A DNA stretch of 32,000 nucleotides from Xylella taiwanensis (lineage in GTDB: Bacteria > Pseudomonadota > Gammaproteobacteria > Xanthomonadales > Xanthomonadaceae): positions 2,070,001-2,102,000 of the forward strand of contig NZ_CP053627.1 of NCBI RefSeq assembly GCF_013177435.1. Reading direction: 5' to 3'. Made by a program: the position numbers and the translations under genes. The notes under the pieces were generated by a model. That model saw only the letters and a program-made list of their open reading frames with translations, was not told the origin of the DNA and made no database searches. Of the stretch, positions 1 through 6,334 are shown in pieces. Each line of letters starts with the position of its first letter. Position 1 is the first letter of the stretch.

Positions 1-1
1 C

Positions 2-955
2 TATGCCCACGGACAAACTGACACCACCGCATTCTACCTATTCGATACACTCAAGTTCAGTCGCCGTTGGTACGTCAACGGCGGCCTGCGCTGGGACCGC
101 TACAACACCGACTATTCGGCACTGCTGTGCGACCCCGTACGCGGCCGCATCTACTGCAACACAACGACTACCATACTCGATCAGTTCAAGGGCAACGCTT
201 CTGGGACTCTGTTCGGCTGGAAAACGGGCGTGCTATTCAAACCCACCGAACACAGCAGCCTGTACATCAACTACGCAGTTTCCCAACAACCACCCGGTGG
301 TGCTTCACTGGAACTAAGCGCCAAACCCCAGAATTCCAATAACCCGAACTACCGACCACAAACCGCACGCACTGCCGAAACGGGCGTGAAGTGGAACTCA
401 TCTCAAGAACGTCTGCAACTGACCGCCGCGATATACAACACCGAGGTCAAGAACGACGTAGTACAGGACCCAATCGACCTACAGTATTACCAAAATGGCG
501 AGAAACGGGTGCGCGGCGTTGAACTCAGCGCAGTTGGCCAAGTGACCGACGCCTGGTCGATGTCGGCAGGGTTCACGACGATGGACGCCAAAGTCAAGCA
601 GGGGCCTGCGGTCTCAGCCGACGGTTCACTCGGACTCGCCTACACCCCCAATCAAGCATTCACCGCCTGGACCACATACACTTTTCCGTTTGGCCTGACG
701 ATTGGTGGTGGCGCACGCTACGCCGGCGAGATGAAACGCGACAGCAAAAGCGCGATCGGCACTCCAACTGATATTGAGAGCTACTGGGTCATAGACATGG
801 TACTCAGCTACCGCCTCAGCGAACACCTGGATCTACGGCTGAACAGTTACAACCTGTTAGACAAGGACTACGTCGCAGCGATCAACAAGAGTGGCTACCG
901 GTATGCTCCAGGGACTCCACGTGCATTTTTACTGACAGCAAACTTGCGCTTCTGA
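2..955 (+). CDS. TonB-dependent outer-membrane receptor, C-terminal ~317 aa (5' end outside the window); Fiu/PiuA-like catecholate-siderophore receptor class
   Basis: Frame 2 is open from the window edge (YAHGQTDTTAFYLFDTLKFSRRWYVNGGLRWDRY...), upstream of the ATG at 230 used by the ORF track. The beta-barrel-like sequence ends ...AFLLTANLRF*, a terminal aromatic typical of TBDRs. A piuC/ybiX homologue follows directly, as in fiu-ybiX and piuA-piuC loci. Confidence 0.85.
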   Translation, partial: YAHGQTDTTAFYLFDTLKFSRRWYVNGGLRWDRYNTDYSALLCDPVRGRIYCNTTTTILDQFKGNASGTLFGWKTGVLFKPTEHSSLYINYAVSQQPPGGASLELSAKPQNSNNPNYRPQTARTAETGVKWNSSQERLQLTAAIYNTEVKNDVVQDPIDLQYYQNGEKRVRGVELSAVGQVTDAWSMSAGFTTMDAKVKQGPAVSADGSLGLAYTPNQAFTAWTTYTFPFGLTIGGGARYAGEMKRDSKSAIGTPTDIESYWVIDMVLSYRLSEHLDLRLNSYNLLDKDYVAAINKSGYRYAPGTPRAFLLTANLRF

Positions 956-998
956 GCAACACGAGCACGGCATGAACACCTAGCTCCAAGAGTCGACG

Positions 999-1691
999 AT
1001 GCTTTTACACATCCCCTACATCCTCAATCGCACCCAAGCGACCTCAATGCATGAACGCTTAGCGGCAGCCAACTGGACCGACGGACGCGAGACCGTCGGT
1101 CCCCAAGGTGCGCAGGTTAAACATAATCTGCAACTGCCCGAAACATCGCCACTGCGTCAGGAACTCGGCCGCGAGATCCTTGATGCACTGGCACGCAGCC
1201 CACTTTACTTTGCTGCAACATTACCGCTACGCACATTGCCACCACGTTTCAACCGCTACCAGAAAAACCACCAATACGGATTTCACGTCGACGGCGCGGT
1301 GCTGTCGCTCCCGGTCGCCCACGGCCATACTCCAGTCAGCCTGCGCAGCGACGTCTCTTGCACCTTGTTTCTCAACGACCCGGACGAATACGACGGGGGT
1401 GAGCTGATCATCACTGACACCTACGGCGAACATGAAGTCAAATTGCCAGCAGGCGACCTTGTCATTTACCCCTCGACCAGTCTGCACCGGGTCGCACCGG
1501 TCACCCACGGCACGCGGATCGCCTCCTTCTTTTGGGTACAAAGCCTAGTACGCCAAGCCACACGTCGCCACCAGTTACTCGAGCTGGACACCGCGATCCA
1601 ATCACTGACTGACTCCAACACTGACCGCAACACGATCCTGCGACTCACCAACGTCTATCACAACCTGCTGCGGGAATGGTCAGAGACCTGA
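999..1691 (+). CDS. piuC: PiuC/YbiX-type Fe(II)/2-oxoglutarate-dependent hydroxylase
   Basis: 230 aa, co-linear with E. coli YbiX as I recall it ([78 protein letters not shown]). The HxD...H iron-binding triad is present. Confidence 0.9.
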
Positions 1692-3720: not shown

Positions 3721-3785
3721 GTCCGTAGCCATGACGTACCAATAGCCTCCACGGCAACTGTCTCATCGCCTACTGTCACAACGAC

Positions 3786-4757
3786 ATGAACATATCCGAC
3801 CTCGACCTTGCCACACTGGGCGGCTACACCATGGGCACTACCTGGAGCGTGAAATTGGTGGCGCCACGACAACTCGACCTACACCCACTACACACTGCAA
3901 TCCAAGCACGGCTCGACCAGATTGTCGCAGCAATGAGCACATGGGAACCGAACAGCACCATCAGTCGTTTCAACCACGCACCCGCTGGTTCATGGCATGT
4001 CCTGCCAAACGATTTCGACTTGGTACTACGTACAGCTCTGGAAATCGCGACCATCAGCAACGGTGCCTTTGATCCAACCGTTGGCCCGTTGGTGACTCTG
4101 TGGGGCTTCGGCGCCCATGGCGGCAATCACCAGCAAATACCAACGCCTGAAGCAATCGCTCTTGCAACAGCACGTGTAGGCTGGCAGCACCTAGTGCGCA
4201 CCACTGACGGACGCTGGCTGCAACCCGGCGGAACCGAGCTGGACTTATCAGCAATCGCCAAGGGATATGGCGTGGACGCCGTCACCGCCACACTACACAC
4301 GCAAGGTGTGAAACATGCATTGGTAGACATTGGTGGCGAGTTATATGGCTATGGACACAAACCTGACGGCACACCTTGGAGTGTGCTGGTAGAACCGGAT
4401 CTCACAGACAAGGTTAACAATGTACTGCCGCCATGCATCCTTGAACTGAATGGACTTGCAGTCGCCACTTCTGGCGACCGTTGGCACCACTTCGAACACG
4501 AAGGCCAACGTTACACACACACTATCGACCCTCAGCAAGGCACACCCCTCCCTCGCGCGCCCGCGATGGTCACCATGATCGCAGTCAGTGCAATGCACGC
4601 TGATGCCTGGACGACTGCTCTAAGTGCGCTGGGCCGGGAAGCCGGCTTAGCACTGGCCGAAGCGCTCGGATTGGCGGTTCGCTATCTAGAACACGATAAT
4701 GGGACACTAACCGCTTACTACAGTCCAGCCTTCAATCGCTTGTTGCACAAGCCATGA
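3786..4757 (+). CDS. apbE: FAD:protein FMN transferase (ApbE family)
   Basis: ApbE blocks are present: GYTMGTTWSVKL, GAFDPTVGPLVTLWGFG, DLSAIAKGYGVD, ALVDIGGE and VATSGDRWHHFEHEGQRYTHTIDPQQGTP. There is an in-frame TGA at 3732-3734 and no ATG/GTG/TTG between it and 3786, so the N-terminus is short and has no signal peptide. Confidence 0.9.
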   Translation: MNISDLDLATLGGYTMGTTWSVKLVAPRQLDLHPLHTAIQARLDQIVAAMSTWEPNSTISRFNHAPAGSWHVLPNDFDLVLRTALEIATISNGAFDPTVGPLVTLWGFGAHGGNHQQIPTPEAIALATARVGWQHLVRTTDGRWLQPGGTELDLSAIAKGYGVDAVTATLHTQGVKHALVDIGGELYGYGHKPDGTPWSVLVEPDLTDKVNNVLPPCILELNGLAVATSGDRWHHFEHEGQRYTHTIDPQQGTPLPRAPAMVTMIAVSAMHADAWTTALSALGREAGLALAEALGLAVRYLEHDNGTLTAYYSPAFNRLLHKP

Positions 4758-6334
4758 ACAGCATGAACCAGGTTGGGCTGAGCCAAATACTGACTGGCAT
4801 CCTACTTGCAACCGTAGCACTAGTACTCCTAGACCTACATACCGGCCCGTGGTGGCTTGGCATGCCAAGCACGCTCCGAATATCAATCGCCAGCGTGTGC
4901 CTAGCAACTTACCTGGTCGTTTGTCTGCGGTGTTTGCGCCCACAAGAGCACTTACACATCCAGAAAGATGCCGTACTGTTTGCCTGGGCAAGCCAAACAG
5001 GCTTTGCCAAAACACTCGCGGAACGCAGCGCAGCAGCCCTGCAACAGGCTGGATGCAACGTGCAGACGCTCCCTTTGGAATGGCTAGACAACAAAACACT
5101 GCACAAGGCCACCTGCGTGTTGTTCGTCATCAGTACTACCGGTGAGGGCGACCCACCAGATCACGCTCAACCCTTTGTTCATGTTCTGGCGACCTCTCTC
5201 CCACTCCCTCAATTGCGCTACGGTCTGATAGCACTCGGTGATCGCCGTTACAAAACGTTCTGCGCCTTCGGGCGACGTCTAGATCATTGGTTGACGGATC
5301 AGGGAGCCGAGGCACTATTCGAGCGGATCGAAGTTGACAACGGTGATCCGCAAGCGCTGCGAAAATGGCAACAGCAACTCACCAATCACATCGGAGACGT
5401 CCCGATCGTTTGGAGACCACAGACATCTGCAACATGGCGCCTGCAAGCACGTCAACATTGCAATCCAGACAGTCCAGGTGGCGCAGTCTACCGACTGCGC
5501 CTCGTCCCCGACGATGGTCACCTCCCTTTTTGGCAAGCTGGTGACATCGCTGAAGTCATACCATGCCATCCGCCATGCCGAGTACAAACGTGGCTGGAAC
5601 AACATACGTTGGACGGTGATGTGTTGGTGGACGGACGTCCATTACGTGATTGGCTAGCAACATCACAATTACCAGAAACCGTCCCAACTCATCTATGGCC
5701 CGCTACCCTGGTCGCAGGGCTCACCCCACTGTCTGCTCGTGCTTACTCGATCGCCTCGATTCCAGAGGAAGGTCACATTGCGCTGCTGTTACGGTACCAA
5801 TCAGGTCCTAACGGCACTCCCGGCCTGGGTAGCACTTGGCTGTGCAAGCACGCACCACTGGAGGGAAAGATTGCACTGCGGATCCGAACCAATCCAAGCT
5901 TTCATGGACCGCCTGCAGATCACTCATTGATCTTAATTGGCAACGGTACCGGTATTGCTGGTTTACGCGCCCACCTACGCGCACGCATCGAAGCCGGCGC
6001 GCGCGCCAACTGGCTGTTGTTCGGCGAACGCAGCGCCATTCATGATCATCACTACGCCGAAGACATTCATGCCTGGCAGCGCGACGGCTGGCTCACACGT
6101 GTCGACCTCGCCTTCTCAAGGAACGGTAAGCCGCATCGTTGCTACGTCCAGCATTTGCTGGAAACCGCTGCAGACATGCTACGCACCTGGGTTGCCAACG
6201 GTGCCAGTCTCTATATCTGTGGCAGCCTACACGGAATGGCACAGGAAGTAGACGCTACGATCGAACGAATCTTGGGGCCCGATCTACGCCAACACCTGCA
6301 GCAACAGGGTCGTTATAGGCGCGATGTTTACTAA
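4754..6334 (+). CDS. Membrane-anchored diflavin (flavodoxin + FAD/NADPH) reductase, CysJ/PiuB-like
   Basis: Two N-terminal hydrophobic helices (ILTGILLATVALVLLDL, ISIASVCLATYLVVCL). Flavodoxin block AWASQTGFAKTLAE...VLFVISTTGEGDPPD. FAD motif RAYSIAS. NADPH motif LILIGNGTGIAGLR. CysJ-like C-terminus GRYRRDVY*. The ATG overlaps the apbE stop (ATGA). Confidence 0.85.
   Translation: MNSMNQVGLSQILTGILLATVALVLLDLHTGPWWLGMPSTLRISIASVCLATYLVVCLRCLRPQEHLHIQKDAVLFAWASQTGFAKTLAERSAAALQQAGCNVQTLPLEWLDNKTLHKATCVLFVISTTGEGDPPDHAQPFVHVLATSLPLPQLRYGLIALGDRRYKTFCAFGRRLDHWLTDQGAEALFERIEVDNGDPQALRKWQQQLTNHIGDVPIVWRPQTSATWRLQARQHCNPDSPGGAVYRLRLVPDDGHLPFWQAGDIAEVIPCHPPCRVQTWLEQHTLDGDVLVDGRPLRDWLATSQLPETVPTHLWPATLVAGLTPLSARAYSIASIPEEGHIALLLRYQSGPNGTPGLGSTWLCKHAPLEGKIALRIRTNPSFHGPPADHSLILIGNGTGIAGLRAHLRARIEAGARANWLLFGERSAIHDHHYAEDIHAWQRDGWLTRVDLAFSRNGKPHRCYVQHLLETAADMLRTWVANGASLYICGSLHGMAQEVDATIERILGPDLRQHLQQQGRYRRDVY

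Follow-up and report, generated by a model that had tools for sequence, protein, structure and literature searches.

Do the seven genes that open a 32,000-nucleotide (nt) stretch of Xylella taiwanensis DNA (contig NZ_CP053627.1, positions 2,070,001 to 2,102,000; the whole stretch is referred to as the window) form one pathway of iron acquisition, and if so, how would the flavoprotein encoded among them receive its cofactor? At positions 1-6334 these genes encode a TonB-dependent siderophore receptor, a PiuC-type dioxygenase, a PepSY membrane protein, two secreted proteins with the domains DUF2271 and DUF4198, an ApbE flavin transferase and a membrane-anchored diflavin reductase. Our analysis favours, with a probability of about 0.6 for the whole and a lower one for the individual steps, a single Fur-type operon of iron starvation that couples the import of an Fe(III) chelate across the outer membrane to the reductive release and capture of the iron in the periplasm. 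The locus is an ordinary member of the known PepSY-like iron-reduction systems fused to a CciT-CciO-type pair, and in this way it joins two known iron modules in one cluster. A single feature of it matches no described system, namely the strict combination of a leaderless ApbE with a proline-containing flavinylation site on an exported protein. The xylem sap in which Xylella lives is poor in iron. As one of the few complete iron routes of Xylella that lead from receptor to reductase, the locus is a reasonable choice of target for iron-acquisition studies in a quarantine plant pathogen.

Layout of the gene cluster

All coordinates given below refer to the window unless a locus label (L001 etc.) is added. 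The seven open reading frames (ORFs) lie on the forward strand, and their domains were assigned by Pfam and NCBIfam profile searches. An earlier note on this DNA, made from its letters alone, had described seven co-directional genes with gaps of at most 65 nt and had named their products; the confirmed ORF coordinates bear out this layout, and the profile searches upheld every domain call as well as the gene order. The spacing between consecutive genes is 43, -16, 19, 34, 65 and -4 nt. The note had also seen two overlapping junctions. The ATGA overlap between the stop codon of apbE and the start codon of the reductase gene (-4 nt) was confirmed, whereas the junction between piuC and the PepSY gene hinges on the start codon of the latter: the ATG at 1676 gives a 16-nt overlap and the ATG at 1700 an 8-nt gap. 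We prefer the ATG at 1700 as the probable true start, because it agrees with the public gene call and because the alignment of the Xylella fastidiosa ortholog begins at residue 9. When positions 1-8000 were scanned for promoters and terminators, the signals were at or below chance level.

The receptor-dioxygenase pair and its Fur-like box

The window begins within the gene of a Fiu/PiuA/CciT-type TonB-dependent catecholate-siderophore receptor, of which it holds the 3' 954 nt, i.e., the last 317 codons (1..955, forward strand; PF00593 1.2e-45 and NF007349 3.6e-154 on this fragment). The start of the gene lies 1325 nt before the first position of the window, and its full product of 759 amino acids (L001 6307-8586), which carries a signal peptide, scores 1223 bits against a Fiu equivalog cutoff of 686. 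It is followed on the same strand, after 43 nt, by the gene (999..1691) for a PiuC/YbiX/CciO-type Fe(II)/2-oxoglutarate dioxygenase of 230 amino acids without a signal peptide (NF003975 335 bits, cutoff 180; PF13640 and PF18331). The ratio of nonsynonymous to synonymous substitution rates (dN/dS) of the dioxygenase gene is 0.11 in comparison with X. fastidiosa. The two proteins are above their equivalog cutoffs and their genes are adjacent and co-directional, which are the properties of a Fiu-YbiX pair. By its family membership, the receptor would import a ferric chelate of the catecholate type.

The earlier note had suggested that a Fur box be sought upstream of the receptor, outside the window. 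A Fur-like box was found there; it lies 175 nt ahead of the receptor ATG, within an island of conserved sequence (L001 6132-6150, that is, 1482-1500 nt before the window start). This candidate Fur-binding sequence, ACTATTGAAAGTCATTCTC, matches the consensus at 13 of 19 positions in X. taiwanensis, and its counterpart in X. fastidiosa (GCTATTGAAAATCATTATC) at 16 of 19. Fur-like sites with at least 13/19 matches were present in 13 of the 82 orthologous receptor promoters versus 5 of 483 background windows.

Relation to known iron-reduction systems

The five genes downstream of piuC correspond to the 'PepSY-like' systems of Méheust 2021 (PMC8238504), which comprise 3220 clusters, 2833 of them with DUF2271, 1500 with DUF4198, 1077 with an NAD-binding domain and 231 with a TonB-related gene. 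No Xylella, Xanthomonas or Stenotrophomonas rows occur in the text of the supplement to that survey. These systems are defined by PF03929 or PF16357 within five genes of an ApbE, FMN-bind, DUF2271 or DUF3570 gene, and in X. taiwanensis PF16357 adjoins DUF2271 and lies three genes from ApbE. In the same study, periplasmic iron reduction, including that of siderophore-bound iron, and a link to TonB receptors were proposed for these systems (PMC8238504). Thus, the module, the TonB link and the proposed reductive role in iron handling, which the earlier note had combined into a relay, were already published in 2021, and apart from the peculiarity of ApbE and the flavinylation motif the locus is a further example of a system already described. 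The order of electron flow put forward in the note is consistent with the sequence features, with the published PepSY-like model and with the Fur and transposon sequencing (Tn-seq) data from Caulobacter described below; as the note had also stated, the full chain has still not been biochemically reconstituted.

The genes CC3059-CC3063 of Caulobacter crescentus encode the same five proteins in the same order; the predicted topology of these proteins is the same, and they too have been proposed to reduce Fe(III) in the periplasm. Expression of the genes rises 12-51 fold when iron is limiting and in a fur mutant, and their Fur sites have been validated (PMC3751524). Moreover, transposon insertions in CCNA_03155-03159 (= CC3059-CC3063) lower fitness in EDTA according to Tn-seq, and the EDTA phenotype is rescued by iron (PMC3751524, PMC12004947). 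Genetic work in Caulobacter showed that CciT and CciO (Fiu-YbiX/PiuA-PiuC) act as partners; this pair is Fur-regulated, and its synteny extends across Proteobacteria (PMC12004947). By analogy, the cytoplasmic dioxygenase of X. taiwanensis would be needed for the receptor pathway. The PepSY-like type system has no Fiu/PiuC in its cluster, and the CciT-CciO pair stands alone in E. coli and Caulobacter, whereas in X. taiwanensis the module is joined to the pair and follows it within 8 nt. This physical fusion strengthens the case for placing the enigmatic PiuC/YbiX/CciO dioxygenase in a reductive iron-release pathway.

Conservation of the cluster

Conservation was assessed in 160 loci, 80 of which came from a one-genome-per-species scan and 80 from a metagenome scan; in the latter, the diverse alignment A1 was too divergent and the narrower alignment A2 gave mostly close relatives. 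The order PepSY-DUF2271-DUF4198-ApbE-reductase was kept in essentially every Lysobacterales locus, and this five-gene arrangement is far above chance expectation. The earlier note had named a lack of conservation of the neighbourhood outside this genome as a refuting condition; the cluster proved to be conserved well beyond X. taiwanensis. The position of the receptor-PiuC pair relative to the module is variable. It lies directly upstream of the module in Xylella, Pseudoxanthomonas, Luteimonas and two metagenome-assembled genomes (MAGs) of Bryobacteraceae. In Stenotrophomonas, it is found about 3.3 kb upstream, with a second TonB receptor inserted, and in Hyphomonas and a Sphingomonadaceae MAG it stands on the other side of the module or on the other strand.

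This variability bears on the alternative that the cluster consists of two neighbouring but independent iron modules, with the receptor and PiuC handling a catecholate siderophore by themselves and the PepSY module acting on other iron sources as a general periplasmic ferric reductase with Fe(II) capture, so that their adjacency would reflect shared Fur regulation and no hand-off of substrate. We consider this rather unlikely. The gene orders of Stenotrophomonas, Hyphomonas and the Sphingomonadaceae MAG would fit it, as would the presence of a TonB-related gene in only 231 of the 3220 PepSY-like clusters (PMC8238504) and the situation in Caulobacter, where pair and module are unlinked, yet each matters under EDTA (PMC12004947). 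However, the piuC and PepSY genes of X. taiwanensis are separated by 8 nt or overlap by 16 nt, with no promoter- or terminator-like site between them, the direct adjacency recurs in Pseudoxanthomonas, Luteimonas and the distant Bryobacteraceae, and where the two parts are separated, the gene in between is another receptor.

In Stenotrophomonas maltophilia T2-6, the inserted second receptor (L011 6715-9133) reads in three frames, representing either a pseudogene or assembly errors.

Proposed electron transfer across the inner membrane

The inner-membrane protein of the module is of the PepSY_TM_like_2 type (1676..2350, start probably 1700, forward strand; PF16357 2.5e-82, PF03929 5e-11). Hydropathy predicts three transmembrane helices, at residues 40-58, 178-196 and 205-223. 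Six histidines are conserved at 0.97-1.0 across 60 orthologs, and of these H35, H38 and H197 are placed at the predicted cytoplasmic and H61, H163 and H224 at the periplasmic helix ends. This set suggests two putative bis-His haem b sites of the FoxB kind, through which electrons would cross the inner membrane. The PepSY proteins FoxB and HiuB are di-haem siderophore reductases (PMC11334425, PMC13001220), and like the protein studied here, FoxB (P. aeruginosa, 7ABW), HiuB (Caulobacter) and VciB (V. cholerae) are PepSY transmembrane proteins encoded beside a TonB receptor, with conserved His pairs at both membrane faces that suggest two haems and Fe(III) reduction in the periplasm. They act without ApbE, DUF2271 and DUF4198, whereas the X. 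taiwanensis protein is of the short three-helix PF16357 type and has a dedicated diflavin reductase. A single-sequence search of the PDB gave no matches to the PepSY protein, FoxB 7ABW included. Export through the Tat pathway by means of its stretch 'QRRSFWL' was ruled out, as Stenotrophomonas does not conserve the second Arg. Residues 55-58, where the first helix reaches the periplasmic side, form a conserved stretch of the [ST]-G-x-[ST] type, T-G-L-T (1841-1852), preceded by the invariant F52 and with the conserved His61 nearby; the likeness to a flavinylation motif is superficial, since neither the Asp nor the Ala is present, and the role of this stretch is probably structural.

The last gene of the cluster (4754..6334, forward strand) encodes a membrane-anchored diflavin NADPH reductase of the CysJ/CPR family with 526 amino acids, which would bind flavin mononucleotide (FMN) and flavin adenine dinucleotide (FAD) (PF00258 3e-26, PF00175 8e-7). 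Two N-terminal transmembrane helices (7-25 and 43-61) precede the flavodoxin domain and an FNR-like FAD/NADPH domain, in which an RxYS motif for FAD, a GTG loop for NADPH and DVY at the C-terminus are present. The Pfam search detected no FAD_binding_1 domain in this protein, and the connecting region is short. The reductase matches CysJ (6EFV, 1.5e-40) and CPR structures; judged by its score, 222 bits versus a CysJ equivalog cutoff of 668, it is not CysJ itself. According to its domains and motifs, the reductase would admit cytoplasmic NADPH electrons to the PepSY protein.

The comparison with X. fastidiosa indicates that this entry is optional, and the proposed chain may start from NADPH or from another donor. 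The X. fastidiosa locus is syntenic, and six of the genes are intact in both species, with 82-91% amino-acid identity and dN/dS values of 0.11-0.25 between X. taiwanensis and X. fastidiosa, which reflects purifying selection. The reductase gene, however, is a decayed relic in X. fastidiosa (about 8400-8900 in L162-L164, corresponding to window positions 4880-6947): homology stops about 125 nt into the gene, and only two short fragments and a few out-of-frame tblastn pieces are left. In one strain (L163), apbE is frameshifted as well. Because the reductase was lost while the other six genes remained under purifying selection, we conclude from these sequences that the rest of the module does not depend on the dedicated NADPH reductase, in agreement with the absence of the reductase from about two thirds of the published clusters (PMC8238504). 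The earlier note had made the reductase the entry point of the relay for NADPH electrons; such an entry is not obligatory, the gene being a relic in X. fastidiosa and missing from several related clusters. The two Xylella species, one having kept and the other having lost the reductase, thus represent a natural experiment on electron entry into PepSY systems.

ApbE and its predicted substrate DUF2271

Two features that are absent from the earlier note concern the flavinylation step: ApbE has no signal peptide, and the predicted site in DUF2271 reads TGPT. The secreted DUF2271 protein (2370..2882, forward strand; 170 amino acids; PF10029 2e-49) carries a Sec signal peptide, judged by eye and hydropathy, with cleavage between MRITLTIALSGLLAMPAYA and TT; the protein is 100% identical to the X. 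taiwanensis database entry. Its predicted flavinylation motif is D93-G-V-T-G-P-T99 (2646..2666, forward strand; from the translation and the published motif, PMC8238504, PMC12052999), with Thr99 as the predicted acceptor and Pro98 in the place of the canonical Ala of [S/T]GA[S/T], the motif at which flavinylation of DUF2271 by its cognate ApbE was shown experimentally (PMC8238504). D93, G97 and T99 are invariant in 45 diverse members of the DUF2271 family, the GPT clade included. Among diverse representatives of the family, the residue before the acceptor Thr makes about 59 of them GAT and about 11 GPT, and [ST]GPT was found in all 120 nearest homologs. These 120 sequences and a dN/dS of 0.13 rule out that TGPT is a private lesion or the mark of a pseudogene. 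The AlphaFold2 (AF2) model of DUF2271, a beta-sandwich with a disordered motif loop, is weak (pLDDT 61), and a fold search with this poor model gave nothing significant; the DUF2271 profile found only spurious or weak FlgD-like matches in the PDB.

The ApbE FAD:protein FMN transferase of the cluster (3786..4757, forward strand; 323 amino acids; PF02424 8e-78) has kept the catalytic residues S229, H245 and D273, which correspond to S241, H257 and D285 of V. cholerae; H245 aligns with the His257 that was mutated in 6NXJ. Its matches in the PDB include 5MGY (2.9e-61) and 6NXI (5e-53), and it aligns with positions 34-347 of the 351 in the E. coli ApbE profile, scoring 219 bits, below the equivalog cutoff of 498. 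It has neither a signal peptide nor a lipobox, and in-frame stops at 3732 and 3726 precede its ATG by 18 and 20 codons. An erroneous start codon was ruled out by these stops, by the absence of an alternative start, by the constant position of the Met over about 130 loci and by the lack of conservation of the upstream sequence. Throughout Xylella, Stenotrophomonas, Pseudoxanthomonas and Luteimonas, the leaderless proteins share the start M-x4-6-LD[IL]A-x-LGG-x-TMGTTW.

In the loci L001-L172, ApbE proteins with a signal peptide were seen solely beside a GAT-type DUF2271. Counted by locus, which are not phylogenetically independent units, ApbE is leaderless in 129 GPT-type loci and has a signal peptide or lipobox in none, and the GAT-type loci comprise five of each kind; in one more GAT locus (L172) the N-terminus of ApbE is ambiguous. 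In a neighbour-joining tree without support values, the large GPT clade of Lysobacterales is monophyletic, and GPT also occurs in separate alphaproteobacterial branches; three divergent uncultured GPT loci stand outside the tree. ApbE is leaderless in all of these GPT loci. The GAT loci with a leaderless ApbE fall between the clade with signal peptides and that with GPT, and this intermediate position suggests that the loss of the leader preceded the change from Ala to Pro.

The extracytosolic ApbE of the published PepSY-like model is therefore not found here, as the enzyme carries no export signal: the paper draws ApbE outside the cytosol and gives the motif as [S/T]GA[S/T], whereas X. taiwanensis has a leaderless ApbE and TGPT. 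The enzyme shares its fold and catalytic residues with the canonical ApbE lipoprotein that modifies NqrC/RnfG-type substrates. The latter works in the same compartment as its substrate, whereas the X. taiwanensis enzyme is leaderless and its presumed substrate, which bears a Pro motif, is exported by Sec. In lacking a signal peptide, it resembles the ApbE of Klebsiella pneumoniae fumarate reductase (PMC12052999); known cytosolic ApbEs such as this one modify cytosolic proteins. A leaderless ApbE would have escaped the survey of Méheust 2021, because a signal peptide was demanded on just one flavinylation gene per cluster (PMC8238504), and its pairing with an exported DUF2271 is unmentioned in that study and in its 2024 and 2025 follow-ups. 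The claim of the earlier note that ApbE covalently flavinylates a periplasmic DUF2271 therefore runs into a conflict of topology: the catalytic residues and the core of the motif are kept, but the enzyme is leaderless and the acceptor motif contains Pro.

These findings raise the question of whether DUF2271 of the GPT/leaderless clade is flavinylated at all. If it is not, the ferric reductase would be the PepSY haem protein, alone or together with the diflavin reductase, as in the case of FoxB and VciB, DUF2271 and DUF4198 would serve as binding or chaperone proteins, and ApbE would have another job such as FAD/FMN handling or the modification of a cytoplasmic target. Such an arrangement would be in keeping with the missing export signal in 129 of 129 GPT-type loci, the Pro in the place of the canonical Ala, the existence of cytosolic ApbEs with cytosolic targets in K. 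pneumoniae (PMC12052999), the translational coupling of apbE to the gene of the cytoplasmic reductase and the ability of VciB and FoxB to function without flavinylation partners (PMC8238504). Nevertheless, we regard it as distinctly unlikely. The family-wide invariance of D93, G97 and T99, which includes the GPT clade, is hard to explain for an unused site, ApbE retains its transferase residues, and inspection of the translated cluster ORFs found the motif D-x-x-[ST]-G-x-[ST] in no other protein. Moreover, ApbE is under purifying selection between the Xylella species (dN/dS 0.20) although X. fastidiosa has lost the reductase, and so it is probably not there for the reductase. A service of ApbE to the reductase is further disfavoured by the lack of a flavinylation-like motif in the reductase, as in PepSY, DUF4198 and PiuC. 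The maintenance of ApbE without the reductase in X. fastidiosa favours DUF2271 as its substrate, and DUF2271 is the only plausible one that the cluster encodes.

If DUF2271 is flavinylated, electrons would pass from the PepSY protein to an FMN attached to Thr99 by the ApbE of the cluster, as we infer from the Amantichitinum homolog, which has the GAT motif. As ApbE has no signal peptide in this clade, the flavin would most likely be attached on the cytoplasmic side, to the unfolded DUF2271 precursor before Sec export; this is the least certain point of the proposed mechanism. For the GPT subclass as a whole we offer, tentatively and with considerable doubt, the explanation that a cytoplasmic ApbE flavinylates the unfolded precursor before or during its threading through Sec and that the flavinylated polypeptide is then exported. 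The proposal would cover all the Xylella, Xanthomonas, Stenotrophomonas, Pseudoxanthomonas and Luteimonas loci seen, along with several alphaproteobacterial and uncultured lineages. If it is true, flavinylation before export would remove the need for FAD export, the change from Ala to Pro would have adapted the motif to being recognised while the protein is still unfolded, and an undescribed mode of extracytosolic flavoprotein biogenesis would change the view of how such proteins are made. The association of the leaderless ApbE with GPT is cheap to test.

DUF4198 and the metal served by the module

The secreted DUF4198 protein (2917..3720, forward strand; 267 amino acids; PF10670 9e-57) is predicted to bind metal in the periplasm. 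Its predicted cleavage between AQA and H21 would give the mature protein an N-terminal His (codon 2977-2979). All of the 60 close and 18 diverse orthologs share this His; H173 is likewise invariant, and H54 is 95% conserved. Work from 2025 showed that two members of the same Pfam family, Zcp (N. gonorrhoeae, 9MHI-9MHO) and IsDUF4198 (Ideonella), bind metal in the periplasm, and that IsDUF4198 does so with an N-terminal His (PMC12537917, PMC12663993), as the mature X. taiwanensis protein would. A single-sequence search of the PDB with DUF4198 gave no matches. The profile of its orthologs matched Zcp 9MHI with 1.8e-7, and the AF2 model (pLDDT 75) matched metal-bound Zcp 9MHM (E 2e-13, TM 0.61/0.68) and Ni-bound IsDUF4198 9GCB (E 9e-10). 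The three secreted proteins thus appear to share one fold (TM 0.55-0.68), and the invariant N-terminal His together with this modelled likeness supports the suggestion of the earlier note that DUF4198 is a metal handler. Zcp and IsDUF4198 lie outside flavinylation clusters and bind Zn or Ni, whereas the metal of the X. taiwanensis protein is presumed to be Fe(II). The ligand His of Zcp that was mutated in 9MHK is not conserved in X. taiwanensis, and H173 is clade-specific. In the proposed pathway, the flavin of DUF2271 would reduce Fe(III), DUF4198 would capture the resulting Fe(II) at its N-terminal-His site, and a ferrous importer from another locus would then receive it.

The metals of the characterised relatives suggest another possibility, that the module serves Ni, Zn, Cu or periplasmic redox repair and that the iron context is incidental. 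Distant PepSY-DUF2271 clusters adjoin copper-resistance genes (multicopper oxidase, CopB; L171), a Cu-Zn superoxide dismutase (L165) or a molybdopterin oxidoreductase (L172), which hints that some distant members of the PepSY-DUF2271 family have functions other than iron uptake. For the X. taiwanensis locus, we consider this very improbable: the genes of a Fiu equivalog and of PiuC are its immediate neighbours, it has a Fur-like box upstream, the Zcp ligand mentioned above is missing, and the orthologous Caulobacter operon is regulated by Fur and iron and has an EDTA phenotype that iron rescues (PMC3751524, PMC12004947).

Weighing of the evidence

Several points weigh against a single operon that couples chelate import to periplasmic reduction. 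With respect to regulation and linkage, the Fur match in X. taiwanensis is weak (13/19), the receptor-dioxygenase pair and the PepSY module are unlinked in Caulobacter (PMC12004947), and in Stenotrophomonas a further receptor separates them. With respect to the electron route, X. fastidiosa has only a relic of the reductase gene, and several related clusters lack the gene altogether. With a leaderless ApbE and a Sec-exported DUF2271, flavinylation in the periplasm cannot take place in the way that the canonical scheme depicts. Moreover, all substrates tested so far have Ala at the position that Pro occupies in this acceptor motif, and a change of this Ala to Val halves flavinylation (PMC12052999). 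Finally, IsDUF4198 and Zcp, the characterised DUF4198 proteins, bind Ni and Zn, respectively, and not iron (PMC12537917, PMC12663993), and the cluster itself encodes no ferrous-iron importer.

Genomic surroundings

The cluster is followed by a gene-poor, low-GC stretch of about 3 kb (6335-9398; 45.7% GC vs 56.7% in the operon) and then by housekeeping genes, which places its end at 6334. The sole gene of this stretch (7190-7567, reverse strand) encodes a ComEA-like helix-hairpin-helix protein. Rfam and tRNA scans of the window were empty, 6335-9398 showed no terminator or significant repeat signal either, and a repeat search of 6300-9450 returned short chance-level matches only. A ferrochelatase gene (hemH) is located at 28111-29115 on the reverse strand, 22 kb downstream of the operon, and we found nothing that links it to the operon. 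From position 6948 on, the gene-poor stretch is conserved in X. fastidiosa, with 84% nucleotide identity.

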